Origin: a candidate division FCPU426 bacterium
Lineage (GTDB): Bacteria > Oederibacteriota > Muellerivitia > Muellerivitales > Muellerivitaceae
Assembly: GCA_963796105.1 (NCBI GenBank)
Contig: CAWCKJ010000004.1
Location: 128,001-192,000, forward strand
Reading direction: 5' to 3'
DNA: 64,000 nt
Part shown: piece after piece, positions 2,973 to 32,335 of the stretch
Numbering within the stretch: position 1 is the first letter of the stretch
Layout of the letters: every line of letters begins with the position of its first letter
Notes under the pieces: generated by a model
Told to the model about the DNA's origin: nothing
Seen by the model: only the letters and a program-made list of their open reading frames with translations
Database searches by the model: none
Made by a program: the position numbers and the translations under genes

Positions 2973-5900
2973 TCATCTCAAAACAAGCAATTTGGCGACG
3001 AGGCGGCCCTGGGGTGTCTGGACCACCACGTAGTAGATCCCGTTGGAAAGGGGCTTCCCTGCCTTGTCCGTCAGGGGGATTGGGACATCCGTCACCCCCA
3101 CTGGCACTTGGGTCCTGTCAATCTCGTTCACCTTCCTGAAGGACAATGTGAATATCTCGATTCGTACCAACGGCTCGCTTTGGGCCAGGATGATCTGGAT
3201 CGTCACTGGCTCCGTTCCATCCACAGGATTCGGATAGACAACAATCTTGTTCTTGCCAACCGGTGTCGGAGTTCCCGTCAAGGTGGCCGTCGGAGTGTAC
3301 GATGCGGTGTAAGTCGGTGTGGAAGACGGCGTCTTCGTGTAGGTGAACGTCGCCGTGAAGGTAGCCGTGGGGGTCCCGGTGGCTGTGGGTGTCGCGGTAT
3401 AGGTCCATGTCCTCGTCGAGGTAGGGGTGAAACTTGATGTTGCTGTGAAGGTGGCGGTGTTCGTTCGTGTTTGGGTCGGAGTTGGCGAAGCCGAAACGGT
3501 CATCGTGTTCGTGACCGTCGTGGTAGCGGTGAGGGATGCCGTAGGCGTCATCGAAGCCGTGGGTGTCGGCGTATTCGTCCAGGTATAGGTAGGGGTGGAC
3601 GTTGAAGTAAATGTCGCCGTAGGTGTGGAAGAAGGCGTATTGGTAAAGGTGGAAGTCGGAGTGTTGGTGGACGTGTCGGTGACCGTCGGGGTCGGCGTGT
3701 AGGTCAAAGTATTGGTCGCAGTAGGCGTCGGGGTGCGTGTCGGGGTGTTCGTATAGGTGGGTGTAACCGTCGGTGTGTTGGTGGGCGACTGGGTTCCGGT
3801 GTTGGTATTGGTCGCGGTAGGCGTCACCGTCGGCGTATTCGTGTTCGTCGGCGTCGAGGTATTAGTGGGTGTGTTCGTCTTGGTGCTGGTGGCGGTATTC
3901 GTGAATGTGTTGGTGGGCGTTGAAGTCATTGTATTTGTTGAAGTATGTGTCGGGGTCGCGGTGTTGGTGGAGGTGGAAGTGGGTGTCTTTGTTGCCGTGG
4001 CGGTTGGCGTGTTGGTGGACGTGTTGGTCAGTGTCGGAGTCTGCGTAGATGTCGAGGTGAGCGTCGGGGTGGGCGTCGAAGTGCGTGTCGGGGTGCTCGT
4101 ATAGGTGGGTGTGATAGTCGGAGTGTTGGTGGGGGACTGGGTTCCGGTGTTGGTATTGGTCGCGGTAGGCGTCACCGTCGGCGTATTCGTATTCGTTGGA
4201 GTCGTGGTATTAGTGGGTGTGTTCGTCTTGGTATAGGTGGCTGTGCTCGTAAAGGTACTTGTCGGGGTCGATGTCGGGGTGAATGTGGCCGTATTAGTCG
4301 ACGTAGGTGTGGATGTCCGAGTCGGGGTTGTTGTCGGCGTGTTGCTCAAAGTATTCGTCACTGTTGGGGTCGGAGTGGATGTCGAAGTATTCGTCGGGGT
4401 GGGTGTCGGGGTCCTGGTCGGGGTAATGGTAGGCGTATTCGTGGGGGAAGTGGTCCCCGTATTGGTATTGGTCGCGGTAGGCGTCACCGTCGGCGTATTC
4501 GTGTTCGTCGATGTGGCTGTATTGGTGGGTGTGCTGGTCCTGGTATTGGTAGCTGTGCTCGTAAAGGTGCTGGTCGGGGTCGAAGTCGCTGTGGAAGTTG
4601 AAGTATTCGTGGAGGTCGGCGTAGCGGTTCTGGTCGGTGTGGCAGTCGGCGTATTGGTAGATGTGTTCGTCACCGTTGGGGTCGAAGTGGATGTCGAAGT
4701 ATTCGTCGGGGTGGGTGTCGGAGTCCTGGTCGGGGTAATGGTAGGCGTATTCGTGGGGGAAGTGGTCCCGGTGTTGGTATTGGTCGCGGTAGGCGTCACC
4801 GTCGGCGTATTCGTGTTCGTCGAAGTCGCGGTATTGGTGGGGGTATTCGTCCTCGTGTTGGTGGATGTGTTCGTAAAGGTGTTGGTTGGGGTCGAAGTCG
4901 CTGTGGAAGTTGGAGTATTCGTGGAGGTCGGCGTAGCGGTTCTGGTCGGTGTGGCAGTCGGCGTATTGGTTGGAGTGTTTGTTACTGTTGGGGTCGGGGT
5001 GGAACTCGAGGTATTCGTTGGAGTGGGTGTCGGGGTCCTGGTCGGGGTAATGGTAGGCGTATTCGTGGGGGAAGTGGTCCCCGTATTGGTATTGGTCGCA
5101 GTAGGCGTCACCGTCGGCGTATTCGTGTTCGTCGATGTGGCTGTATTGGTGGGTGTGCTGGTCCTGGTATTGGTAGCTGTGCTCGTAAAGGTGCTGGTCG
5201 GGGTCGAAGTCGCTGTGGAAGTTGAAGTATTCGTGGAGGTCGGCGTAGCGGTCCTGGTCGGGGTTGCTGTCGGCGTATTGGTAGATGTGTTCGTCACCGT
5301 TGGGGTCGAAGTGGATGTCGAAGTATTCGTCGGGGTGGGTGTCGGGGTCCTGGTGGGGGTGATGGTAGGCGTATTCGTGGGGGAAGTGGTCCCGGTGTTG
5401 GTATTGGTCGTGGTAGGCGTCACCGTCGGCGTATTCGTGTTCGTCGAAGTCGCGGTATTGGTGGGGGTATTCGTCCTCGTGTTGGTGAATGTGTTCGTGG
5501 GGGTATTGCTGGGTGTTGAAGTCGAGGTGTTTGTGGAAGTATTTATCGGTGTATTGGTCCTCGTCGGAGTGGAAGTGGATGTTGCCGTATTTGTGGCGGT
5601 ATTGGTAGAAGTGGTCGTCAAGGTGGCGGTAAGAGTATTAGTTGACGTGTTGGTCCTGGTTGGAGTAGGAGTGGCTGTTGCCGTATTCGTGGCGGTATTA
5701 GTCGGGGTATTCGTGGGTGTGGATGTCACAGTATAAGTCGGTGTATTCGTCCGGGTCGCGGTCGGGGTAAGCGTCGGGGTGTTTGTGGCGGTATTGGTCG
5801 AGGTGTTCGTCCTCGTCGGAGTTGGCGTAGCAGAAGGCGTAGCGGTGAGGGTGACCGTGTCGGTCACAGTGGCCGTAGGCGTCATCGAAGCCGTTGCGGT

Positions 5901-8342
5901 ATTCGTCCTGGTCGGAGTGGGAGTGGATGTTGCCGTATTTGTAGCGGTATTAGTCGGGGTACTAGTGGGTGTAGCTGTCGTCGTATTCGTGGATGTGTTT
6001 GTCCTGGTCGAGGTGGAGGTAAGAGTCACCGTATTGGTCGCGGTGCTGGTGGAGGTATTCGTCAGGGTAGCCGTGGCAGTATTGGTAGGTGTATTCGTCC
6101 TGGTCGGGGTGGGAGTGGATGTTGCCGTATTTGTAACGGTATTAGTCGGCATATTCGTGGGTGTGGATGTCACCGTATTAGTTGGTGTATTTGTCCTAGT
6201 CGGGGTTGAGGAAAGGGTCGCCGTATTGGTGACTGTGTTGGTAGAGGTATTCGTTCGGGTCGCGGTAGCCGTGAGTGTCGGGGTGTTTGTGACGGTATTG
6301 GTCAGAGTATTCGTGGAGGTAGATGTCACCGTATTGGTTGCGGTATTCGTCCTAGTCGGGGTTGGAGTGGCCGTCGCTGTATTGGTGACTGTGTTGGTGG
6401 ATGTGTTCGTCCTTGTCGCGGTCAAGGTTGGGGTGTTGGTGAAAGTGTTCGTCAGGGTGCTAGTCGCCGTATTTGTGGGCGTATTGGTGCGGGTGTTGGT
6501 GGATGTGATCGTGGGCGTCGCGGTGGCGGTATTAGTGGCCGTGTTTGTCCTAGTCGGGGTTATAGTCGGCGTTTGGGTCGGGGTGTTCGTGGCCGTGTTC
6601 GTCCTAGTCACGGTGGGAGTGGAGGTCCTAGTGGGCGTGTTGGTGGCGGTGCTCGCGACGGTGCATACCACCGAGATGGCGATGCTGTTGCTGGTCACGG
6701 GTCCCCCCCCCGACCAACTGGCGATCCCGGCGTCGGTGACGACATTGCAATAATCGCTCGAATTGACGCTGTAAGACCCCACGATGAAGGTAATGGGTAC
6801 GCAGGCACCCCCCGGCAGGTTGCTCACCACCCAAGTCAAGTTGGGGTAGGCCGTGCTGGTGGGGTTGATGGTCACCGCGGCGCCTGACTCCGTCACTGTC
6901 CATTGGCTATAACCCGGCCCCTCAAAGGACCATCCCAGGGGGTTCGTAATGCTGTCCGTCACCGTGACCGAATTGGCCGTAACCGCCCCGGTCCCATTGC
7001 AAACATTCAGGAACATCGTGATGGGGCCGGTATCCGAATAATTAGAAGTAGGTCCTCCCGTGGTCTTGGTGAGGGTGATTTTAGGGGGGACCGTTGTTGG
7101 AGTAGGAGTAAATGTGGGTGTAAAGGTGCTGGTATGTCCGGGGGTGTTGGTGGGGACGGGAGATCCGCTGGAGCAATTGGGGGTCGGGGTCTGGTTCAAG
7201 TTATACAACCAGGTGGAAACCGGCGCGCCGTGGTAGGAAGTGGTGGGATAGCCGCTGAAACTCGTTATTAGTGTCGGGCTATCATCGGAGCTGAAGCACC
7301 AGGCCATGGCCGAATAAACGTAATTGTTACTGTTGCTTCCATCAATCCAAGCGAGAGTCTGAGTGTCCCAATTGGCAGGGTCGCTGGAGGCCGCGCCGAA
7401 TTCCTCAATCATTACGGCATAGTTGCCTGTGATCGTGGTCACTTCCGGATCCCAACCGCCGGCCGTCACACCCTTGTTGTTATAAACGTGGGAGGAATAA
7501 AGAACCCCATATCCCGAACCGGTGTCGGTTAGGGGCCTTGCTGGCACGCCCGACAAATCATAGGCATAACCGATCCCACCCGCCACGCAAATGTTATTCG
7601 CGCCCGTGCCGCGGATGGTGCTTAAGAGGGTCTGCAAACCGACATAGCCCCCGTTCCCGGTCACAGCCTCGTCCCAAGTAGTCGGATAGGGTTCGTTGAA
7701 CATGTCGTATAAGACCGCGGGATTATTGGCATAGGTTGAGGCAACGGAGGACCACAAGGTCACCGCGTTGGCATCCGGTAACGGCTGTTGGCCCGTAGCC
7801 GTGTTCCATCCTGTGCCGCAAGGGGCTGTGGCGGTGGTTTGTGTCCCGGACCAATGCAGGTCCAAATCCACATACACGTTTTGGGAGGAACAATAGTTGA
7901 CGATGGCCGCGATCATGTCCCGATAGGCCGATTGGGTAGGGGTATAGTTGTTTGCGCACCCGAACCAATAACCCTGGTTGAAAGGAACCCGGACGCAGTT
8001 GATATGCCAAGCCGTGACAGCTTCACTGATAATGGCAACATAATTAGTCATGCTAACGCCGTCGACTGTCGTCGTAGGATACCCGGTCCCGGTGTCCCCT
8101 TCGGGATAGTATTCCAAGCCGGAAACATCCACACCCTTTAAGCGGACTGCGCAATTGCCGCTTGCGGTTACGATCTGATTTCCTGAAATTTTAAGTTGAG
8201 GAGGGGCTGCTTGGGAAAGTTGGGGATTGAGGCCAAATCCTAAAAACACGAATAGAATACACCCATATAATTGGCTGGTAAAAAACGATTTCAGCCTTAG
8301 GCCGACTTTATTAGGTTTTATGTATCCGTTCAAGGAATTCAC
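2973..8342 (-). CDS. Secreted GH5 (cellulase family) glycoside hydrolase with ~1200-aa Thr-rich stalk and C-terminal YPNP sorting/Ig-like domain
   Basis: Signal peptide; GH5 motifs VRVPF, DLHW, YDMFNEP (acid/base), SSHVY and IEEFG (nucleophile); T/P/N/S low-complexity repeats; tail VYPNP...[10 protein letters not shown]...KLLVLR. Confidence 0.85.
3763..5450 (-). repeat. Intragenic ~312-bp (104-aa) tandem repeats in the Thr stalk
   Basis: The TPTVTPT(A/T)TNTNTGT(T/Q)SPTNTPT(I/V)TPT motif recurs at 4111, 4423, 4735, 5047 and 5359 (312-bp steps) and at 3763 (348-bp step). Confidence 0.8.
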
Positions 8343-14991: not shown

Positions 14992-15272
14992 ATAGCCCTT
15001 GTTTTCGGATGGGATGTGGACCAGTCAGCTATTAATCTTAAAAAACATGGTGTATCCTTTGAGGAAGCCGCCACTGTGTTGAGCGACCCATTATCCTTTA
15101 CCTTCGATGATCCGGGCCATTCATTGACTGAACATCGCTTTATAACGATAGGCCTATCAACGGATGGGAGGACCCTGGTATTTTCACATACTGACAGGGG
15201 ACATTTAATAAGGCTCATTAGCGCCCGAAAGCGACAAGGCGAGAGAGGAAGTTCTATGAGAAAGAAAAATAA
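14992..15272 (+). pseudogene. BrnT (DUF497) toxin, degraded or frameshifted
   Basis: FGWD..SAINLKKHGVSFEEA...RFITIG...IRLISARK. The expected start position reads ATA (14992). The canonical end ATRRERKFYEKEK* lies in another frame after AAA at 15228-15230. Confidence 0.65.
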
Positions 15273-15474
15273 AAACGAATTGCGGTCGGAATACGACTTT
15301 CAGCGGTTAAAAGGCGGTGTGAGGGGAAAATACGCGGATCAATACCATTCAGGGACCAATCTCGTCCATTTGGATCCCGACGTTGCCAAAGTTTTCGAAA
15401 ACGCCGAGTCGGTCAACCAGACCCTGCACTCATTAATTAAATTCGCCAAAACCCAAATGGCGCATAGCCGCTGA
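15256..15474 (+). CDS. BrnA-like antitoxin
   Basis: MRKKNKNELRSEYDF...GGVRGKY...VHLDPDVAKVF...ESVNQTL, typical of DUF497 partners. Its ATG overlaps the toxin 3' end. Confidence 0.75.
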   Translation: MRKKNKNELRSEYDFQRLKGGVRGKYADQYHSGTNLVHLDPDVAKVFENAESVNQTLHSLIKFAKTQMAHSR

Positions 15475-16548: not shown

Positions 16549-19500
16549 TTATTGGAACGCCATGACCGTGGCGTTACCGCCGCTGTTGCCATCCGAAAAA
16601 GCCACGTAAGTCGTGCCGTTGGGGGAAAATGCCAAGGACGTATAACTGGCCGATCCGGCGGAGAAACCCGCGCTCCCCACGTTCGCCCAACCACTCCCGG
16701 TGAAGCCCATGACTGTGGCTTGGTTACCGTTTGCGTAATCCTGAAAAGCCACGTAGGGTTTGCCGGAATAAAAAGCCAGAGACGTATAATTGGCCGTCCC
16801 GGCGGAAAATCCCGCGTTCCCCACGTTTTGCCAACTGCCCGAGGTGTATTCCATGACCGTGGCTTTATAATCATTGCCGCAATCCTGAAAAGCCACGTAG
16901 GGATTGCCGTAGGCATCAATAGCCAGCGACGTATAATTGGCCGGCCCGGCGGAAAAGCCCTCGCTCCCCACGTTTTGCCAACCGCCCGAGGTGTACTCCA
17001 TGACCGTGGCTTTATAATCATTGCCGTATGCGTAATCCTCAAAAGCCACGTAGGGCTTGTTGTTGTACATGGCCAGCGATATATAATTAGCTTCCCCCGA
17101 GGAGAAATCCGGACTCCCTACATTCACCCAATTTCCTCCGATGTACGCCATCACCGAGGCTTTATTGCCGTTCGCTTGATCCTGGAAAGCCACGTATTGC
17201 GTGCCATAGCCGTCAAAAGCCAGCGACGTATAATTAACCCCTCCGGGGGCAAAACCAGCGGTCCCCAGGGTCGCCCAACCGGACCCGCTGTCATACATGA
17301 CCGTGGCGTTACCACCAACATTCCCATCCGAATAAGCCAAGTAGGGCGCGGTGCCGCTGATGTTAAAAACCAGGGACGTATATTGGACCCAGGCGGCGGA
17401 AAAACCCGCGCTTCCATAATTTGCCCAACTGCCATTGCTGTATTCCATCACCGTGGCTTTAGTGCCGTTGGCGTCATCCCGAAAAGCCACGTAGGGATTC
17501 CCGTCGGTGTCAAAAGCCAGCGACGTATATTCGGCCTGTCCGGCGGAGAAGCCCGCGCTCCCCACGTTATTCCAGTTCCCGTGGGGGTTGTGCACGTTCA
17601 AGGTGGCGGTCGCCGTAGGGGTTGATGTGTTGGTCGGGGTTGATGTGATGGTGGGCGTTGCCGTGAAAGTCGGGGTATTTCCGCCGCAGTAATTCATATA
17701 AATACTAAACGAAACTTCATTTTCAACGGACCCTCCACTGGGGTAAGTTCCGGGAAAGGCCCCGAAACTGTAGCTCACGAATACGGTCTTATCCCCAAAA
17801 CCCGTAACCACCTGGGTGGAATTTTGAACCTGGCAAACTAGCCAATAAGTCCCCGCATTGAGGTAAGCCGCCGGAACCGGGATCGTGTTCCAGCCGTTGA
17901 CGGCCGATTGGGCCGCCCCCTGCGTAATAAGGCTGATGGGGCCCGTCGCCTCGCTACCGGAATAAAGGGCCGCGTTCACTTGGCCCGAGGCGCCGCTCAA
18001 ATAAACCGAAATACTCTCGATGCCCTCCCCGACTACCGGAATGTTCACCTCGTTTGCCCACAGGTCTCCTGCCCCGGGTATTAAATTCAGGTATGGGCTC
18101 GTGATTCCAGCTTGGGACGGCGACGAGCAATTAATCGTGGTACTGGTGGGTGTGAGTGTGGGTGTAGGGGTCACGGGAATAGTGATCGTGACGGCGTCGA
18201 TATAGACATTTCCCGTCGCCCCGGCGGCGATACCCGGAATATCAACGCCGAACTGGGAAATATGGTGGGTATCCACGGCACCCGTTGAGCCGGTTCCGCC
18301 GGACCCGGAAGTCAGGGGGATCAATTGCACCCACTTGCCGCCGGTCACATTGGTCCATTGGCCTTCAAAGAGATAAGTCGCGGAGGCCCCGCCCACGGCG
18401 GTCGCGCTTTCATCGAAAACTATGGCGCCGGTGTTGCCCAAACTGGCGTCGCAGTAAACATACGCCCCTATCGAGGCCCCGTTGAAATCCTGGGCGGTAC
18501 TATAGCTGACTTCAAGCTGCAAGGCCCCGGTTACCGCGGCTGAATTGGTGACGCTCACCGCCAATGCCCCCGAACTGCCGGTAGACAATTGGGCCGTGGA
18601 TATGCCGATGGTGTTGATATTCACGGTCGTGCCGCCGTAGGGATCCGAATGCCAGCAATCCATGCTGCTCGCGAAGGTATAGGTCGTCTGGAGCGTGGGC
18701 GCGTAGCAAATGGTGGGTGTGATGGTGGGCGTTGCCGTGAAAGTCGGGGTATTTCCGCCGCAGTAATTCATATAAATACTAAACGAAACTTCATTTTCAA
18801 CGGACCCTCCACTGGGGTAAGTTCCGGGAAAGGCCCCGAAACTGTAGCTCACGAATACGGTCTTATCCCCAAAACCCGTAACCACCTGGGTGGAATTTTG
18901 AACCTGGCAAACTAGCCAATAAGTCCCCGCATTGAGGTAAGCCGCCGGAACCGGGATCGTGTTCCAGCCGTTGACGGCCGATTGGGCCGCCCCCTGCGTA
19001 ATAAGGCTGATGGGGCCCGTCGCCTCGCTACCGGAATAAAGGGCCGCGTTCACTTGGCCCGAGGCGCCGCTCAAATAAACCGAAATACTCTCGATGCCCT
19101 CCCCGACTACCGGAATGTTCACCTCGTTTGCCCACAGGTCTCCTGCCCCGGGTATTAAATTCAGGTATGGGCTCGTGATTCCAGCTTGGGACGGCGACGA
19201 GCAATTAATCGTGGTGCTGGTGGGTGTTTTGGTGGGGGTATAGGTGGGAGTATTGATCGGGGTATTGGTGATCGTATTGGTGGGGGTATTGGTCGGCGAA
19301 TTGGTCGGCGAGGTCGACCCCGTGCTGGTAATAGTGGAAGTCGGAGTGTAGGAGGGCGGCGCGGGCGAATTCACGAATTGGATCTCGTCCACCTGGAAAT
19401 TGAACGGCTGTCCCCCGGGGACCTGGAATTGCATGTTGATGATCTTGGCCCAGTCCAAGGCCACGGGAGCGCCCCAACCCTGCTGGGACAACTGCGTGGT

Positions 19501-20094
19501 GTAGAAAGTGTAGGGGGCCCATGCGCTGGTCAGCGTCACCGAGGCCCCGTAGCTGTCCCCGCAGCTCACGGCGCAGGAGCCGCCGTTGGCCAGCGTCATC
19601 GTCTCATCGGTGCCGATGGTGAAATGGACGACCTGGCCCGCGGGGGTGGAGAGGGCGTAAAACTTGACCCCCGTGTACCCGTAGGACTGCGCGTTATAGT
19701 CCAAGGGCGCGGATGCGAGGAAATTAAAGCCCAGACCCGCCCCATAGCCCGTGAAGCCCGAACCGTTGATGCCCATGGAGTAAAGCGTCCCGTTGGCGCC
19801 GCCGCTGGTGACGGCCAGGGGGTTGGGTAAAAGGGTTCCGCCCGTCCCGTCGTTGTAGGTGTACCAGTAGCCGTTCCTGCCCTGCTGGACGATGATTTGG
19901 GTGTTCTGGTCCTCCAGGTTGTCGATCATCATCGAGGCAGGCGAGGGAGACGTAGTGCTGGTCGGGGTGGACTTGCCGCCTCCCGGGGAAGAGGGGCTGT
20001 TTTTGCCCGGACAACCCAGGAACAGGAAGCAGATGGAGAAGCAGAGGAACAACAAAACCATCTTGCCGGATTGGGGAATGGAGAATCGGTGCAT
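16549..20094 (-). CDS. Modular surface lipoprotein: CBM11/CIA30-like domain, duplicated ~165-aa domain, Thr/Pro linkers, C-terminal 7-bladed beta-propeller
   Basis: Lipobox LFLGC; MIDNLED...GYWYTYND (CBM-like); seven ~48-aa repeats W.NVG.AGFS.G.A.YTSLAF...PYVAF.D...KATVM. Confidence 0.75.
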   Translation of the reverse strand: MHRFSIPQSGKMVLLFLCFSICFLFLGCPGKNSPSSPGGGKSTPTSTTSPSPASMMIDNLEDQNTQIIVQQGRNGYWYTYNDGTGGTLLPNPLAVTSGGANGTLYSMGINGSGFTGYGAGLGFNFLASAPLDYNAQSYGYTGVKFYALSTPAGQVVHFTIGTDETMTLANGGSCAVSCGDSYGASVTLTSAWAPYTFYTTQLSQQGWGAPVALDWAKIINMQFQVPGGQPFNFQVDEIQFVNSPAPPSYTPTSTITSTGSTSPTNSPTNTPTNTITNTPINTPTYTPTKTPTSTTINCSSPSQAGITSPYLNLIPGAGDLWANEVNIPVVGEGIESISVYLSGASGQVNAALYSGSEATGPISLITQGAAQSAVNGWNTIPVPAAYLNAGTYWLVCQVQNSTQVVTGFGDKTVFVSYSFGAFPGTYPSGGSVENEVSFSIYMNYCGGNTPTFTATPTITPTICYAPTLQTTYTFASSMDCWHSDPYGGTTVNINTIGISTAQLSTGSSGALAVSVTNSAAVTGALQLEVSYSTAQDFNGASIGAYVYCDASLGNTGAIVFDESATAVGGASATYLFEGQWTNVTGGKWVQLIPLTSGSGGTGSTGAVDTHHISQFGVDIPGIAAGATGNVYIDAVTITIPVTPTPTLTPTSTTINCSSPSQAGITSPYLNLIPGAGDLWANEVNIPVVGEGIESISVYLSGASGQVNAALYSGSEATGPISLITQGAAQSAVNGWNTIPVPAAYLNAGTYWLVCQVQNSTQVVTGFGDKTVFVSYSFGAFPGTYPSGGSVENEVSFSIYMNYCGGNTPTFTATPTITSTPTNTSTPTATATLNVHNPHGNWNNVGSAGFSAGQAEYTSLAFDTDGNPYVAFRDDANGTKATVMEYSNGSWANYGSAGFSAAWVQYTSLVFNISGTAPYLAYSDGNVGGNATVMYDSGSGWATLGTAGFAPGGVNYTSLAFDGYGTQYVAFQDQANGNKASVMAYIGGNWVNVGSPDFSSGEANYISLAMYNNKPYVAFEDYAYGNDYKATVMEYTSGGWQNVGSEGFSAGPANYTSLAIDAYGNPYVAFQDCGNDYKATVMEYTSGSWQNVGNAGFSAGTANYTSLAFYSGKPYVAFQDYANGNQATVMGFTGSGWANVGSAGFSAGSASYTSLAFSPNGTTYVAFSDGNSGGNATVMAFQ
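17644..19215. repeat. 498-bp direct repeat (17644-18141 and 18718-19215)
   Basis: The copies read identical by eye at a 1074-bp offset, and the same peptide TINCSSPSQ...YCGGNTPTFTATPTIT occurs twice in the translation. Confidence 0.9.
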
Positions 20095-20257: not shown

Positions 20258-21962
20258 CCGGGATTTCCCAGATGACTTCTTCCTGCAACATCGCCGGTTA
20301 ATTTGTTCCTCATTATATTGCCCCCCCCCCGCTTCTTCCATCGGAATTCAGAATTTTCAGGTCCCAGGCCAGTTGAATGAGCCCCAGGAAAAGGTTTATG
20401 TGCCCAAAAAACCTGAAAAATGACTTTCGGAAAGGCTATTCTCGTTGTGAGCGCACACTTATCCAACGATAGTTGATCGGGTTGCAGCCATGAAGCGTTC
20501 CTGCGGTTATCGCAGTACTGGTGCTCGCGGCCTTACCATCGCCAATAGCCGTTTCCGATTAAGGATTTCAGCAAACAGGCGTCGGGAAACCATCACCTCC
20601 GCCATCTGAAAAACCACGTACCGCGAATGGCGGATGACATTGGCCCCGATCTTGATGAGTTTTTCCCGCAAGGTCGTCAACGACCAATGTTTCACCATTT
20701 CTGGCAAGACCAGACGGCGCAGGAAGTTGCCCAGATTGTAAGCCAGTGCAAATAGTTGCAACCTTACTTGATTGTCCGCGAAGTCGTGGCAACTTAGTCT
20801 TGTCCACTTCATCGCGTACTTCCCCTCCTTGATCCACTGCTCAGCCGTGCCTCGCCCGTTGTAGAACCTCACCACCTGAGGAGCCGGTCGACGCATGTTC
20901 GTCACAATGAAACCAACCCTCGGGAAAAGCTCGCCATGGTGGTGTTCTATTTTCGCCACCACGCGGCGGGGTGTATTCCAACTGGCGGCTTGGTATTGGA
21001 AGCTGTGATACCGGAGGACAGGCTTGTAGGAAGGGCGGCCCACGGGACGGATTAAAAATGGCTCAATTTCCCGTTGCAGCACGTCATTAGCGGGTTGGCG
21101 GATCGCGTAAAGGTATCTTTCGTCTTCCAGGTACTCGTATAGTTCCTGACGGGCGAAGGCCGCGTCACCCCGGAAAAACCGGCTGATGGAAAGACCCCGG
21201 TAGCGGGCAACTACCGGTTCAAGAACCGAGCGCCATTCGTGGGCGCTGGCCACATTGCCGTTGCGCAACATCCCCCGTTCCAAATCACCGAACTGGTTGA
21301 AGCAGAAGAGAGGATGGTAGCAGGTACAGCCAAAATAACCGTTGTACAAGGAGCCTTCCTGATCCCCGTAGGTCTCGCTCACGGAGCTGTCCATGTCGAG
21401 GACGATCTGTTGGATGGGCTTTTTTTTATGGACCGCATCAATCCATTGGCCGGACAGATTAATCAGGCCGATCAGGTTTTTCGACTGGGTGAGAACCTCC
21501 GTTTCGAAACGTCCCATCTGGCTTGTGGAGGCGGCCTGTTTGTCCCTCGCCCGTCCTCCGATTACATGCCGCATTGCGGGATCGACACTCAAGCGCTCCG
21601 CGTCGTTGGTATCTTCGTATCCGGCCAAGCGGCTGAATACCGACTGGCGAAGAAGCGCCGTCATCGTGTGTTGCGTGTTCTTGCCGGTCCGCCGATCCCA
21701 AAGGATGTTTTCGGATGAGGCCGTCAAGCCGAAGGCTTCATCCAACTCGCGATAGGGAATCAACCCGCCGTCGGAAGTGACCTTCGCACCATGAAATTCC
21801 AGTTTGAGACCAGGATCAAAAACCACCCGAAGAGCGTCTTTTCTGCCTTCACCCATTGAATTTCCCCTTCTCGTAATCCCCGAAGTGAAGAAAAACCTTT
21901 GTTTATATAGCCAAACGATGTCTTATTATACTCGAAGAGAAATTTCATCTGGGAAATCCGGG
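20258..21962 (-). mobile_element. IS1380-family insertion sequence (1705 bp)
   Basis: Terminal IRs CCGGGATTTCCCAGATGA (20258-20275) and TCATCTGGGAAATCCGGG (21945-21962), 17/18 match; flanks TTTAA and TTTAG. Confidence 0.9.
20507..21856 (-). CDS. IS1380-family DDE transposase
   Basis: VTSDGG, GYEDTNDA, LDMDSS, FRGDAAF and YNGRGTAEQWIKEGK motifs; intact 449 aa. Confidence 0.95.
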   Translation of the reverse strand: MGEGRKDALRVVFDPGLKLEFHGAKVTSDGGLIPYRELDEAFGLTASSENILWDRRTGKNTQHTMTALLRQSVFSRLAGYEDTNDAERLSVDPAMRHVIGGRARDKQAASTSQMGRFETEVLTQSKNLIGLINLSGQWIDAVHKKKPIQQIVLDMDSSVSETYGDQEGSLYNGYFGCTCYHPLFCFNQFGDLERGMLRNGNVASAHEWRSVLEPVVARYRGLSISRFFRGDAAFARQELYEYLEDERYLYAIRQPANDVLQREIEPFLIRPVGRPSYKPVLRYHSFQYQAASWNTPRRVVAKIEHHHGELFPRVGFIVTNMRRPAPQVVRFYNGRGTAEQWIKEGKYAMKWTRLSCHDFADNQVRLQLFALAYNLGNFLRRLVLPEMVKHWSLTTLREKLIKIGANVIRHSRYVVFQMAEVMVSRRLFAEILNRKRLLAMVRPRAPVLR

Positions 21963-22379
21963 TTTAGTAACTGTCCAATCATTCTCGAGTGAGCTTTTTG
22001 CCGTAATCTCATAAATAAACCCCGCCGCGCATAAAAGACCCCCTTCCACAAGGAAAGCCATGCCTGTGTTGTCATTGTCCGCGGAGGACCTGAGGAGTCG
22101 GTCCGCTTCCGGATCGTTAAGGGGGTCAAGGACCGCCTTCAATTGCTGGAAGGACTCTAATTTTAAGCCTTTATAATAATAGTTCTGGGTCGGCCTTTTA
22201 TCAGCTCCACCATGCTGGATCTCAATGGGATAGAATTTTTGTTCAGAACCAGATTTTTTAATCTTGGTTTTCTTGTATTCTGCTTTAAGAGTGTTTTGGC
22301 CTATTTGGGTGTCCAGCGATTGGCCAAACCCCCCGGACGCAATCAGGAATACTAAGAAAAAAACTGCTAATTTCCGCAT
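21945..22379 (-). CDS. Exported/membrane hypothetical protein, 3'-truncated by IS1380
   Basis: GGAG RBS and signal peptide MRKLAVFFLVFLIASGGFG. The last codons (PGFPR*) come from the IS end. Confidence 0.6.
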   Translation of the reverse strand: MRKLAVFFLVFLIASGGFGQSLDTQIGQNTLKAEYKKTKIKKSGSEQKFYPIEIQHGGADKRPTQNYYYKGLKLESFQQLKAVLDPLNDPEADRLLRSSADNDNTGMAFLVEGGLLCAAGFIYEITAKSSLENDWTVTKPGFPR

Positions 22380-22526
22380 ATTTTCTCTCCGTTGTTCATA
22401 ATCCACCTTTAATACGGTCCTATATTACTTCCGTTCAGGACCACTCAGATACATATTGTGAGAAGTGGTATCTAATCTCTGGTAAGCGAGGGCATCCGAA
22501 AGTCAGATCCCCCATTCCGACAGGGC

Positions 22527-22759
22527 TTCCAACAGCCAGATTGCGCATTCCGACAGGGAGCCCGGCTTTCCGACAGGGCTTCCGACAGTCAGACCGCCCA
22601 TTCCGACAGGGGGCCGTCCTTTCCGACAGGCCTTCCAACAGTCAGACCGTTCATTCCGACAGGGGCTCGGGCTTTCCGACAGGGCTTCCGACAATCAGAC
22701 CGCGCATTCCGACAGGGGCTCGGCATTTCCGACAGGGCTTCCGACATCTGTGGGCAGGG
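22527..22759. repeat. Tandem array 1: four 53-bp units, each with three TTCC(G/A)ACA cores
   Basis: Units start at 22527, 22580, 22633 and 22686; the array ends in TTCCGACATCTGTGGGCAGGG. Confidence 0.9.
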
Positions 22760-22975
22760 AATCTTGAAGTCAATGTTAAATTTTGAGTTTTGAATTCTTA
22801 ATTTTGGTAGATTTCCGGGGTTTGGAAATCCTCGATAATTCAACATCCCGCCCCGAGTATTATCGAGGGGTTAACATTCAGAATTCATAATTGCCGTTAA
22901 AAAGTGAGTAGGATTTCCTTTGCCGACCGGCAGGTTAGCGACCCCGACCGCCGAAAAACCCGAATCGACCAGCGG

Positions 22976-23172
22976 GCTCCCGGAACCTGCGGGCAGGACT
23001 CCCGAAAATTACGGGCAGGGCTCCCGACACCTGCGGGCAGGACCCCGAAACCTGCGGGCAGGGCTCCCGACACCTGCGGGCAGGGCTCCCGACACCTGCG
23101 GGCAGGCTCCCGACATCTGCGGGCAGGACTGCCAAAACCTGCGGGCAGGGCTCCCGGCATCTGCGGGCAAGG
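22976..23172. repeat. Tandem array 2: nine ~21-22-bp units, consensus GCTCCCGACACCTGCGGGCAGG
   Basis: Direct inspection; core CCTGC-GG-GCAGG is a short palindrome. Confidence 0.9.
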
Positions 23173-23215
23173 TTCCCAGCTAGTTCCCGAGTTCCCTGGT
23201 TCCCGGCTAATTCCT

Positions 23216-23864
23216 GAGTTCCAAGGTTCCAGGCCAGTTCCAGGAGTTCCAGAGTTCCAGGATTCCCGGGTTCCAAGGTTCCAGGCCAGTTCCAGGAGTT
23301 CCAGAGTTCCAGGATTCCCGAGTTCCAAGGTTCCAGGCCAGTTCCAGAAGTTCCAGAGTTCCAGGAATCCCGAGTTCCAAGGTTCCAGGCCAGTTCCAGA
23401 AGTTCCAGAGTTCCAAGATTCCCGAGTTCCAAGGTTCCAGGCCAGTTCCAGGAGTTCCAGAGTTCCAGGATTCCCGGGTTCCAAGGTTCCAGGCCAGTTC
23501 CAGGAGTTCCAGAGTTCCAGGATTCCCGAGTTCCAAGGTTCCAGGCCAGTTCCAGGAGTTCCAGAGTTCCAGGATTCCCGAGTTCCAAGGTTCCAGGCCA
23601 GTTCCAGAAGTTCCAGAGTTCCAGGATTCCCGAGTTCCAAGGTTCCAGGCCGGTTCCAGGAGTTCCAGAGTTCCAGGATTCCCGAGTTCCAAGGTTCCAG
23701 GCCGGTTCCAGGAGTTCCAGAGTTCCAGGATTCCCGAGTTCCAAGGTTCCAGGCCAGTTCCAGGAGTTCCAGAGTTCCAGGATTCCCGGGTTCCAAGGTT
23801 CCAGGCCAGTTCCAGGAGTTCCAGAGTTCCAGGATTCCCGGGTTCCAAGGTTCCAGGCCGGTTC
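23216..23864. repeat. Tandem array 3: ~12.5 near-identical 52-bp units built of GTTCCA cores
   Basis: GAGTTCCAAGGTTCCAGGCCAGTTCCAGGAGTTCCAGAGTTCCAGGATTCCC, period 52 from 23216 to 23840. Confidence 0.95.
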
Positions 23865-24133
23865 TCGAGTTCTCGGTCAGTTATCGGGTTCCCGGCTAGT
23901 TCTCGGATTCCTGTGGTTCCCGGCCGGCGAAAAACCCACTAATTTCAAGTTTAAAACGCCAAATTTTGGCTAGATTTCCATACTTTGGAAATCCTCGATA
24001 ATTCAACATTTAAAATTAAAAATTCAAAATTGTTATTCCATGCCAATGGAATAACCCCTCTTGGGAACTTTTCCTTTTGAGCTGTGTCCAATGGGGTATA
24101 GGCAGTTCAAAACATTCACACAGGAGAAAGGTC

Positions 24134-25018
24134 ATGCGATTAAACAAGATGCTTCTAGCCGGGCTTCTGGTCCTGGGGGTCGCGAACACCCAGGCCGCCA
24201 CCAAGGAACATACCGTCAAATACCGCCTCGCGATCCAGGAGGACGACCGGCTGGTCCACGAGACCCGCCACCAGCCCTACCAGTTCCGGGTGGAAATCGT
24301 GAGCGATGACGAAGGGGTGAAACCAGAGACCTACCGTAACGGGCGGCCCTTTATCACAGCCTCCAGGGGGGAGAATTACTCGGTACGGCTCTACAATCCC
24401 CTGCCAGTGAGGGTGGCCGTGAACCTGACGGTGGACGGGCTTAATTCCATCACCGGCAAGCCCAGCGGCATCTCGGACGGCCAAAAATGGGTCATCGACC
24501 CCTATAGCTCCGTCACAATCCCGGGATGGCAGGTGAGCGGTGAGGAAGCCAGGCGCTTCTTCTTTACCAACAAACCCAAGTCCTACGCCCAATGGCGGGG
24601 GAATGAGATGGGAAAGGACCTGGCGGCCAACTGCGGTGTGATCGGCGCGGCCTACTTCTGGAACCAGGATGAGTTGAACCAGTATTACGATTCCCACCCG
24701 ATCTACCGTTACAGCCAACAGCCTTACCCGTATAACTCCTATCGCGCCAAGGCTTACGACAGTTTATGCGCTCCGCCCGCGCCCGCTTGCACCAGCGGAA
24801 TGATGGAAAGAAAAGCGAAAAAAGAAGCGCCTGAGGAGCAGGCGGGAACCGGCATGGGAGAGCGTGAATCCAACCCCACCTACCAGGTGTCTTTCGACTA
24901 CAACGCCGGGATGTATTCCCTCGACCAGGCCGTGGTCATCTATTACGACTTTGCCAAGACCCCGAGGCCCAACCCCTTCCCGGACCTCAGCTTCGCCCCG
25001 GAAATGCCCCTGCACTGA
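24134..25018 (+). CDS. Secreted conserved hypothetical protein
   Basis: AGGAG RBS; signal peptide; GENYSVRLYN...VAVNLTVDGLNSITG...GVIGAAYF; strong GC3 bias. Confidence 0.8.
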   Translation: MRLNKMLLAGLLVLGVANTQAATKEHTVKYRLAIQEDDRLVHETRHQPYQFRVEIVSDDEGVKPETYRNGRPFITASRGENYSVRLYNPLPVRVAVNLTVDGLNSITGKPSGISDGQKWVIDPYSSVTIPGWQVSGEEARRFFFTNKPKSYAQWRGNEMGKDLAANCGVIGAAYFWNQDELNQYYDSHPIYRYSQQPYPYNSYRAKAYDSLCAPPAPACTSGMMERKAKKEAPEEQAGTGMGERESNPTYQVSFDYNAGMYSLDQAVVIYYDFAKTPRPNPFPDLSFAPEMPLH

Positions 25019-28308: not shown

Positions 28309-29220
28309 TTAAAGCGATTCAAAATAATCTTCGTTTATCACTTTTAACGAATAATTTTGTTTAAGTTCTACACCCACATCATAATGGTACATTAATTCAG
28401 CCAATTCCCTTCCATCGATTAACTTGATTACAGAATCAAAATTGCCAATACATTCTTTTGCTTCTTTTGAAAATGAAGAACTGGTAATAAATATTCCTTT
28501 TTTGGATTTTCGTTCATTCAGGCTACCCACAAATTGCTGAATAGCCGGTCTCCCAACTTGGTTACCCTCACCATATCTTTTTGCTTGTAAATAAATTTTG
28601 TCTAGGCCCAATTTGTCCTGATTTATCACCCCATCGACCCCTCCATCACCACTTTTTCCCAAATGCAAAACACTTTCATCCCCAACCCCATAACCCATTT
28701 TTTTCAACAAATTGATAATCAACCTTTCAAAATCAATGGGGTCAATCGAACGAACTTTGCTGATTAAATCGGAAATTATCGCAGCCTTATATGTTTCGAA
28801 ATTTTGTTCAAGAGCCTCTTCGGGATTCTCATTTGTATCCCGTGATTTATTTTGCGCCTCCTCTTTATCTTTTTTTGGAAGAGCGCGAAATTGCTTGAAT
28901 GATTCATATTTATTAAGTACATCGATATTTATTTTTTTCACCCCACTTTTTAATAGAGCCTTACCTTCATCGGCAATAAGATACAAGCCTCGTTTAGGCC
29001 TTTTTAACAACCCAGCCTTGTACAAATAAAACAAAGCCCATTGTGTCCTATTATCTATTACTCTCTGTTTTCCACTTGGTAGTAACGCGTTTATTTCTTC
29101 TTCACTGAGTTTGAAAAATTTAATTACAGGGGGAAATATTTCATTGCTTTTAGCAGAGCCTTTCTCCGCAACAAACTTAAGGGCTGGCAACATTATGGTT
29201 TGATAATCCGGTATTGGCAT
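28309..29220 (-). CDS. mrr: Mrr-family type IV restriction endonuclease
   Basis: MPIPDYQTIMLP N-terminus; FERL...MGYG; SGDGGVDG...IYLQAKRY; GIFITSS; AGGAG RBS; AT-rich. Confidence 0.9.
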   Translation of the reverse strand: MPIPDYQTIMLPALKFVAEKGSAKSNEIFPPVIKFFKLSEEEINALLPSGKQRVIDNRTQWALFYLYKAGLLKRPKRGLYLIADEGKALLKSGVKKINIDVLNKYESFKQFRALPKKDKEEAQNKSRDTNENPEEALEQNFETYKAAIISDLISKVRSIDPIDFERLIINLLKKMGYGVGDESVLHLGKSGDGGVDGVINQDKLGLDKIYLQAKRYGEGNQVGRPAIQQFVGSLNERKSKKGIFITSSSFSKEAKECIGNFDSVIKLIDGRELAELMYHYDVGVELKQNYSLKVINEDYFESL

Positions 29221-29272
29221 ATTGCTCCTAAAACAAAAATAATCTAAATTCATTATAAATAACCCATAGAAT

Positions 29273-30473: not shown

Positions 30474-31403
30474 GTGAAAAATACAGCGATTAGCACTTTT
30501 CAACTCTTTAAATTATTCCCTGATAAGGAATCTGCGAGGGTCTATATTGAAAAACTCCGATGGCCGGATGGTCCGGTTTGCCCTGCTTGCGGAGAAACCA
30601 AGCGGATAGGTTCCCGCAGGCCAGAGTATTATTGCTGTAATGCCTGCCTTTTAGACTTTACGGTGCGAACCAATTCCATTTTTGAGCGTTCCCACATTCC
30701 GCTTCATAAATGGCTTTATGCCATGTATTTGCTGGTAACGGCACGTAAAGGGATTTCCAGTATGCAACTTTCCAAGGAAATCGGGGTTACTCAAAAATCG
30801 GCTTGGTTCATGCTTGGCCGTATCCGTGAAGCTTGCGGAAACGATTATTCAACTTTGAGTGGAACCGTTGAAATTGATGAAACCTATGTTGGGGGAAAAG
30901 AAGAAAATAAACATGCAAATAAAAAGCTTCATGCTGGGGGTGGTCCAGTTGGAAAAACTCCTGTTCTTGGAATGCGTGAACGTGGTGAAGGTGGGCACAC
31001 AAGGGCTTTGCCACTCAAGGCTGTAAACAGTGTCACTCTTTCCGAAACGGTTGCCTGGAATGTAAAAGAAGGAAGCACAATCAACACGGACGACAACCAA
31101 GGTTATGGGCCTTTAGACGATGTTTACAAACATGAATCGGTAAATCACAGCGCGAAAGAATACGTTAGGGGAAACGTAACCACTAATAGCATTGAAAGCG
31201 TTTGGGCGGTTTTGAAAAGAGGATTAAACGGGGTTTACCATCATGTGGAAAAGAAGCACTTGGGCCGTTATGTAAACGGATTCACCTTTCGCTTGAATGA
31301 TGGGAATGTGGAGCGCACTACCGATCAAAGAATCTCAAGCCTCTTAGCCGCTTCCGTTGGAAAACGGCTTACTTTTGACGAACTAACGAAGGTGGTTAAA
31401 TGA
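30474..31403 (+). CDS. IS1595-family DDE transposase
   Basis: Zn ribbon CPACG...CNAC; RKGISSMQL; VEIDETYVGG; TDD; TNSIESVWAVLKRG; GGAGG RBS. Confidence 0.95.
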   Translation: MKNTAISTFQLFKLFPDKESARVYIEKLRWPDGPVCPACGETKRIGSRRPEYYCCNACLLDFTVRTNSIFERSHIPLHKWLYAMYLLVTARKGISSMQLSKEIGVTQKSAWFMLGRIREACGNDYSTLSGTVEIDETYVGGKEENKHANKKLHAGGGPVGKTPVLGMRERGEGGHTRALPLKAVNSVTLSETVAWNVKEGSTINTDDNQGYGPLDDVYKHESVNHSAKEYVRGNVTTNSIESVWAVLKRGLNGVYHHVEKKHLGRYVNGFTFRLNDGNVERTTDQRISSLLAASVGKRLTFDELTKVVK

Positions 31404-32031: not shown

Positions 32032-32335
32032 CCCGAGGGCGGGAAAATAAAAAGGCACCGCCCCGCTGACGCTCATATGGGAAATTTCCCCTATGTACCC
32101 CTTCTCAAGACCAAAGGGGGCTCAGCCCCCTTTGAAATCCCGAGGGCGGAAATTAAAAAGGCACCGCCCTGCTGACGCTCATATGGGAAATTCCCCCTAT
32201 GTACCCCTTCTCAAGACCAAAGGGGGCTCAGCCCCCTTTGAAATCCCGAGGGCGGAAATTAAAAAGGCCCGCCCTCAATTAAGAGAGCGAGCCTTCGCGG
32301 CCTAAATTAAGCCTCTCCCCGGTCAGGGGGAGCGG
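32032..32335. repeat. Copies B, C, D of the CCCGAGGGCGG motif; B and C open tandem ~106-bp hairpin units, D includes the nrdJ terminator
   Basis: Motif at 32032, 32139 and 32245. Units carry CAAAGGGGGCT-C-AGCCCCCTTTG. The minus strand of D reads AGGCTCGCTCTC-TTAATT-GAGGGCGGGCCT-TTTT. Confidence 0.85.

Follow-up and report, generated by a model that had tools for sequence, protein, structure and literature searches.

Stacked intergenic repeat arrays of an uncultured bacterium as candidate docking sites for ParB-derived proteins encoded elsewhere

Plasmid iterons and iteron-like centromeres consist of 21-22 bp direct repeats with a conserved head and lie beside the gene of the protein that binds them. 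REP/BIME elements are intergenic mosaics of a few words, with hairpin units, which are targeted by IS elements and linked to the HUH protein TnpA-REP. For bacterial satellites, classes of 22/44 and 52 have reportedly emerged from one study. Non-coding bacterial satellites of 20-21 and 52 nt were described by Subirana and Messeguer (PMC8161180); in the accessible part of that paper the 52-nt repeats are confined to Firmicutes and an unknown protein is proposed, no binding protein being named. Satellites of fixed length (~21, 52 bp) and free sequence are an open puzzle, for which we present a first candidate binding protein. The candidate is related to ParB, in which R173 is a proven specificity residue and Q162 a DNA contact (PMC7383237, accessible part). 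Also relevant is ParT of plasmid SCP2, which, according to the accessible part of its description, binds an 18-bp parS and works with ParA (bioRxiv 10.1101/2024.05.08.592561).

The DNA analysed here (the window) is a stretch of 64,000 nucleotides. A preliminary description, made from the letters alone, had reported three different tandem arrays within 1.5 kb. Tandem Repeats Finder recovers all three, with periods of 53, 21-22 and 52, and array 1 does close in a unit resembling those of array 2, as had been stated. The locus and its flanking genes are made up as follows.

21945..22379, minus strand: left flanking gene, ~145 aa, signal-peptide-like start, without Pfam family
22495..22746, plus strand: array 1, 53-bp unit with three heads (TTCCGACAGG) at a spacing of 12+21+20
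22765..22905, plus strand: AT-rich palindromic element, copy 1, including the 26-bp motif (22821-22846) and a 24-bp insert
22974..23177, plus strand: array 2, nine near-palindromic heads (TGCGGGCAGG), one per 21-22 bp, with variable tails
23210..23864, plus strand: array 3, 52 bp x12.6 (Tandem Repeats Finder)
23849..23930, plus strand: degenerate 19-bp tail of array 3
23935..24035, plus strand: AT-rich palindromic element, copy 2, with the 26-bp motif (23984-24009) and a short hairpin (z -2.9)
24134..25018, plus strand: right flanking gene, 294 aa, without Pfam family

Tandem Repeats Finder places array 1 at 22515-22746 (period 53 x4.4) and gives array 2 a period of 22 (x9.4). Array 3 contains 12 full 52-mers, each at most 2 mismatches from the consensus, with internal steps of 8, 8, 8, 8, 11 and 9. 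The units of the arrays differ by scattered point changes. The preliminary description had also held the arrays to be non-coding and free of unique spacers, and both points are confirmed: just low-scoring repeat frames overlap the arrays, which led us to reject a coding role, and the tails are related variants, not the unique spacers between identical repeats that define a CRISPR array. With at least 4 repeats, no coding content and periods within 20-23 or 51-53, the window arrays have the properties of satellites, and the window DNA is a new instance, in an uncultured lineage, of this described and unexplained class.

That the arrays belong to a family spread through the genome, as had been supposed, was also borne out. 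Sixteen core words define 54 repeat clusters, compared to 0, 0 and 0 in three shuffles; these merge into 42 loci, 33 of which are mosaics of at least two unit families each, and a motif-free detector yielded five further arrays. The window locus is one of these ~42 mosaic intergenic loci. Periods of 21-22, 42-44 or 51-53 are found in 79 of the 141 non-coding tandem arrays of the genome, which holds several lineage-specific satellite families with short words in common. Units carry a conserved head of ~10 bp, and their spacing is mostly of whole helical turns: the head TGCNNNYAGG, common to many unit families, forms 117 pairs at 21-22 bp and none at 16-17 or 26-27 bp. In the arrays bearing this word (11 of the 27 of short period), the mismatch rate of heads is four times lower than that of tails (63/1091 versus 293/1275). 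A triple TGCNNNYAGG head occurs in 4/99 genomes of the phylum, and the 52-bp family is spread in this genus, weakly so in the sister species (G001). An exact 36-bp scan of GTDB returned 0 matches; the triple array-2 head had 10 matches there, in unrelated taxa, which we read as chance or convergence.

In the sister species, arrays lie upstream of the orthologue of the right flanking gene (85% amino-acid identity), which anchors the conserved array position: array-1 heads come first, then array-2 heads, then other heads, and a tract resembling the tail of array 3 occupies the same position as in the window. Copy number and content of the arrays differ freely between the two species. The family as a whole resembles plasmid iterons in its direct repeats of 21-22 bp, its conserved heads and, at some loci, the adjacent gene of a candidate binding protein; unlike iterons, the arrays are chromosomal, occupy dozens of loci, have no Rep or ParA noted adjacent and are mostly gene-less. 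A Pfam scan of the genes flanking the window locus found no Rep family. The likeness to the satellites of Subirana and Messeguer, as far as the accessible part of their paper goes, lies in constant periods, the presence of several families in one genome, short words that are conserved, sequence specific to the lineage and turnover between relatives; however, the families here are stacked in mosaics, polarised with respect to replication and accompanied by a candidate cognate protein family.

The preliminary description had looked for the missing partner among enzymes; it is more likely a family of DNA-binding proteins encoded at other loci. In another genome (G023), paralogous 650-aa genes without Pfam family follow directly downstream of two arrays, and the N-terminal 138-aa domain of these genes has six intact copies in the genome studied here. 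All six paralogs start 51-251 bp downstream of an array of the same polarity. The 52-bp family is found 51 bp upstream of two of them (C2:369087 and C12:331839) and also upstream of a gene fragment (C6:86497). For array 1, none of the paralogs in this assembly fits, and a 746-aa family member of a related genus (G019, L176) is preceded by the array-1 head; the array-2 head was not seen in the array before any family member. A profile search detected the domain in 18/99 genomes and, at E 1e-10, in 78 clusters of a set of 1.84 billion representatives. Phased upstream arrays, each built on its own head, precede 37 of 38 aligned members from 9 genomes (the alignment omits two fragments and one duplicate locus), or 29/30 when the 8 members found through arrays are left aside. 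None of 13 weak ParB-like loci (34-52 bits) has an upstream array. In the window, the left flanking gene occupies the position expected of a cognate gene but is not a family member, and neither a gene of the ParB-type family nor a remnant of one lies between positions 15 and 30 kb of the window.

Searches of Pfam, PDB sequences and the Atlas were uninformative for the domain itself, and no viral relatives were found. The domain was modelled at pLDDT 90.9, and the top VIA-align match of the model is 6s6h (Z 8.0, a middling value for a helical domain; rmsd 3.3; 100 aligned), followed by Spo0J (7.0) and KorB (6.8). The top five Foldseek rows are Noc, ParB or Spo0J, at E values of only 0.25-0.33 and with no E below 0.001. 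In addition, the family profile aligns at 98% (hhalign) to a ParB_N-bearing relative, which itself matches Spo0J, Noc and ParB structures by sequence. As modelled, the family fold is that of the ParB DNA-binding domain. The CTPase domain ParB_N (PF02195) stands in front of it in 13/14 weak representatives versus 0/12 strong ones; in the family proteins the HTH domain begins at residue 1, and a hydropathy scan finds a hydrophobic helix after it in 52/61 strong representatives, from which the proteins are predicted to be membrane-anchored. The family thus shares its DNA-binding fold and its best head-predicting position (R173) with ParB/Spo0J-parS, Noc-NBS and KorB (PDB 6s6h, 1vz0, 8qa8; PMC7383237 in its accessible part). 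Unlike ParB and Noc, it lacks the ParB_N CTPase, is predicted to have a transmembrane helix and in many cases carries an outer domain, and instead of 16-bp palindromes its putative sites are 10-bp direct-repeat heads in phased rows, with many paralogs and private heads. ParT is likewise a ParB-like protein without CTPase domain; neither a membrane anchor, predicted here, nor paralog-specific arrays are described for it in the accessible part of that report. A literature search, with most subscription papers outside its coverage, found no paper on a module of a ParB-offshoot gene with an array. Three longer ParB-like relatives are encoded in the genome (G000:C3:513318-516080, L197; C3:264435-265805; C4:1322950-1323702): a 921-aa one combines ParB_N and the same outer domain with predicted membrane helices, no array being seen upstream of it, and a 251-aa one has a mosaic array upstream. 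Two CRISPR-like arrays are also present (G000:C2:363.8k-367.0k and C16:43.5k-45.7k), the first with its end ~1.4 kb away from a 52-bp array that has its cognate gene beside it.

We then compared heads with recognition helices. Head similarity correlates weakly with that of the HTH (Mantel rho 0.13, p 0.002), the partial value on the rest of the domain being 0.12 (p 0.004), and the correlation peaks at columns 39-48. Mutual information with the head is highest for column 41, then for columns 21 (outside the HTH), 30 and 45; columns 41 and 30 map to ParB R173 and Q162, respectively. Among 36 proteins (one near-duplicate and one array-less member dropped), heads end in ACA in 7/7 proteins with Arg41 versus 3/29 others, and in GCA in 9/9 with Arg30+Thr45 versus 2/27, counts to be read in the light that the rules are post hoc and that kin are not independent. 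Both residue types are scattered over the tree of the rest of the domain, the deep nodes of which are weakly supported. At the level of sequence comparison, these data show that heads co-vary with residue positions contacting DNA in ParB. The array-2 head fits the GCA rule, which the paralog C4:1196536 also obeys, and array 2 is predicted to suit this paralog. The set provides ~37 natural protein-site pairs and would widen the specificity code of ParB and Noc, which covers two sites, to many sites.

We therefore favour, as a reasonably probable account in its full form, that the window arrays are stray docking arrays for lineage-specific, ParB-derived, CTPase-less HTH proteins that are predicted to sit in the membrane. 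Each paralog would bind its own head, with monomers lined up along one helix face, would repress its own promoter, and the bound DNA would be held at the membrane. Replication slippage is the likely way in which arrays would grow, and recombination between short stretches of common sequence would likely shuffle them between loci and so yield mosaics. In the window, binding would occur in trans, by the C2/C12 paralog at array 3 and possibly by the C4:1196536 paralog at array 2. Because the 52-bp unit packs heads 8 bp apart, only a subset of its heads can be in phase. As for shuffling, 5' fragments of the 52-bp cognate gene (G000:C6:86497 and C12:331392) are joined to a different array family through a 6-bp microhomology, and arrays therefore get joined to new sequence by short-homology recombination; IS21 ends are found just upstream of both fragments. 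New here are the orphan status of the window arrays, the candidate protein for a 52-bp satellite, the rules linking residues to heads and the polarity to replication described below. A broader proposal is that at least a dozen membrane proteins derived from ParB, each given a new specificity by changes at a few helix positions, recognise private sites set in rows, that composite gene-less arrays such as that of the window are replication-oriented multi-protein anchors by which many chromosomal loci are fixed to the membrane and that the same cause underlies the 21 and 52 bp satellite periods elsewhere; this we regard as tentative and, on balance, doubtful.

Several observations on arrays without genes speak against the docking account. 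Only 8 of the 42 loci are linked to a family gene, a fragment or a ParB-like relative; the other 34, including the window, have no family gene, and the window locus is an orphan that is retained at the same place in the sister species. Gene-less arrays are also found in G022, G016, G043, G023 and G011, the domain being absent at 14/14 loci, and in G011 (99% complete), which has arrays, the profile finds nothing at E 1e-8. No gene of the ParB-type family adjoins any of ten metagenome arrays that carry the array-1 head. Orphan arrays were rejected as operators of the next gene: ~28/38 would fit, no better than the 73% leading-strand gene bias. With the origin placed at dnaA (C4:859k), the head falls on the lagging-strand sequence in 29 of the 32 orphan loci (p 3e-6 vs 0.5; p 0.014 vs the 73% gene bias). 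A both-strand count gives only 20 vs 13, because the near-palindromic array-2 head counts twice. The 52-bp family is not polarised (8 vs 12). Polarity is weaker in the sister species (12/15 by homologue orientation, 10/15 by local skew), where the array-polarity switch predicted dnaA on C27 and the prediction failed, the gene being on C23. Insertion sequences are frequent inside arrays, with 7/13 and 5/5 for IS21 and 5/9 for IS3, compared to 1/91 for five other IS families and 2.4% of intergenic points. Several arrays (C12:11.7k, C12:176.5k, C4:428.7k, C12:233k and C4:1538k in G000) were inspected by eye for gene neighbours; those of several such arrays are presumably ORF6N-like, toxin-antitoxin or type I restriction genes.

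These observations could also mean that the orphans, including those of the window, are functionless satellite relics of the operators of ParB-derived genes, expanded by slippage and serving as harmless landing space. Most loci being gene-less, the free differences in copy number and content between sister species, the occurrence in this genome of some heads with cognates only in G001 and the accumulation of IS elements in arrays all agree with such decay, and the polarity of 29/32 fits orientation-dependent repeat stability, which is described for other repeats in E. coli in the accessible part of PMC2175318. However, heads are conserved over tails inside loci with the spacing kept in phase, locus and unit order survive in two species, and orphans recur in at least three further genera, so that we judge this account unlikely, if still a serious competitor. 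If the orphans are bound, they would represent an undescribed way of tying the chromosome to the membrane; if they are not, they illustrate the conversion of operators into satellite DNA and landing sites for IS elements.

REP/BIME-like elements, spread on lagging-strand single-stranded DNA by an HUH (Y1) transposase with 14 copies in this genome, would share with our arrays the intergenic mosaics, the targeting by IS elements and the proximity of HUH elements. The polarity of the arrays to replication would fit, and HUH terminal repeats lie within 1.2 kb of 7/42 loci versus 37/1079 gaps. However, no HUH end is present at 35 of the 42 loci, the window locus among them; arrays occur in G023 without a match to this HUH, whereas G042 has 23 matches and no head-pattern hit; the units are direct-repeat heads at fixed phase, without strong hairpins; and the co-variation of heads with the HTH is left unexplained. 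We hold this account to be quite improbable, and HUH as the cause of the arrays was rejected for a distribution that mismatches theirs. The Y1 genes of ~318 aa in G000 are co-oriented with the leading strand in 13 of 14 cases, and at six loci the distance between an HUH terminal repeat and the adjoining array is only 1-48 bp.

The preliminary description had gone further in viewing the two blocks of the locus as elements with conserved ends, opening with GGT(A/T)AGCGA and closing with the same 26-bp motif. The shared motif is real, with exact copies at 22821 and 23984 and nowhere else in the genome, but it is part of a dispersed AT-rich element, the core of which has 14 matches, 7 of them within 1 kb of an array, at 5/42 loci. 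The element, and with it the motif, is missing from the orthologous locus of the sister species and precedes a 52-bp array at C3:743.8k; its arms occur alone in other genera. The 9-bp opener has 36 copies in the genome, only the two in the window being near arrays, and its presence at both blocks is chance. Opener and closer as termini are thus ruled out by the genome distribution and the orthologous locus, and the AT-rich palindromic element is an optional module, not a terminus. A 75-77 bp twin-hairpin element is nested in its central loop beside an array at G000:C4:1537050-1537330. Synthesis of an interior between fixed ends, whether by templated addition of repeats or by a rolling circle, is very improbable and largely refuted, as is an RNA array. 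The 26-bp motif does bracket the window blocks, and two direct copies of the AT-rich element bracket one array in G001; however, such ends are not general, and units carry scattered point changes. Of the expansion that had been proposed, repeated copying stands, whereas synthesis templated by a reverse transcriptase does not: RVT_1 (PF00078), the one family searched, has 0 matches in this 96.8% complete genome. Of the two roles suggested, protein binding is predicted to be the probable one; for RNA there is no structure signal, the arrays folding no better than shuffles (z -0.4 to -1.7) with no Rfam match of note. The public runs listed as carrying the sequence comprise DNA runs and no RNA run.

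Lastly, an assembly artefact of repetitive DNA, a concern raised at the outset, can practically be dismissed: the copy number of array 3 comes from the assembly alone and no public contig among those listed spans that array, but public contigs, from runs that possibly include the source sample, match 22450-22715 (266 bp, unique flank into array 1) and 22980-23079 (100 bp, array 2) with zero mismatches, arrays stand at the orthologous locus of the sister species and units are non-identical.

Long 21-bp arrays whose head is that of array 1 are present on two metagenome contigs from apparently unrelated organisms (L190 and L192), and in L192 the array immediately precedes a gene outside the ParB-type family; these may represent a parallel system. 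Elsewhere in the window lie an IS1380-type (20507-21856) and an IS1595-type transposase (30474-31403), an Mrr restriction endonuclease (28309-29253), a BrnT-type toxin (15016-15474) and a near-perfect 106-bp x2.3 tandem repeat (32032-32275) unrelated to the arrays. Large Thr/Pro-rich repeat surface proteins are encoded at 2973-8342 and 16549-20094, one of 1789 aa with a GH5 domain and one of 1181 aa with 147-bp repeats.
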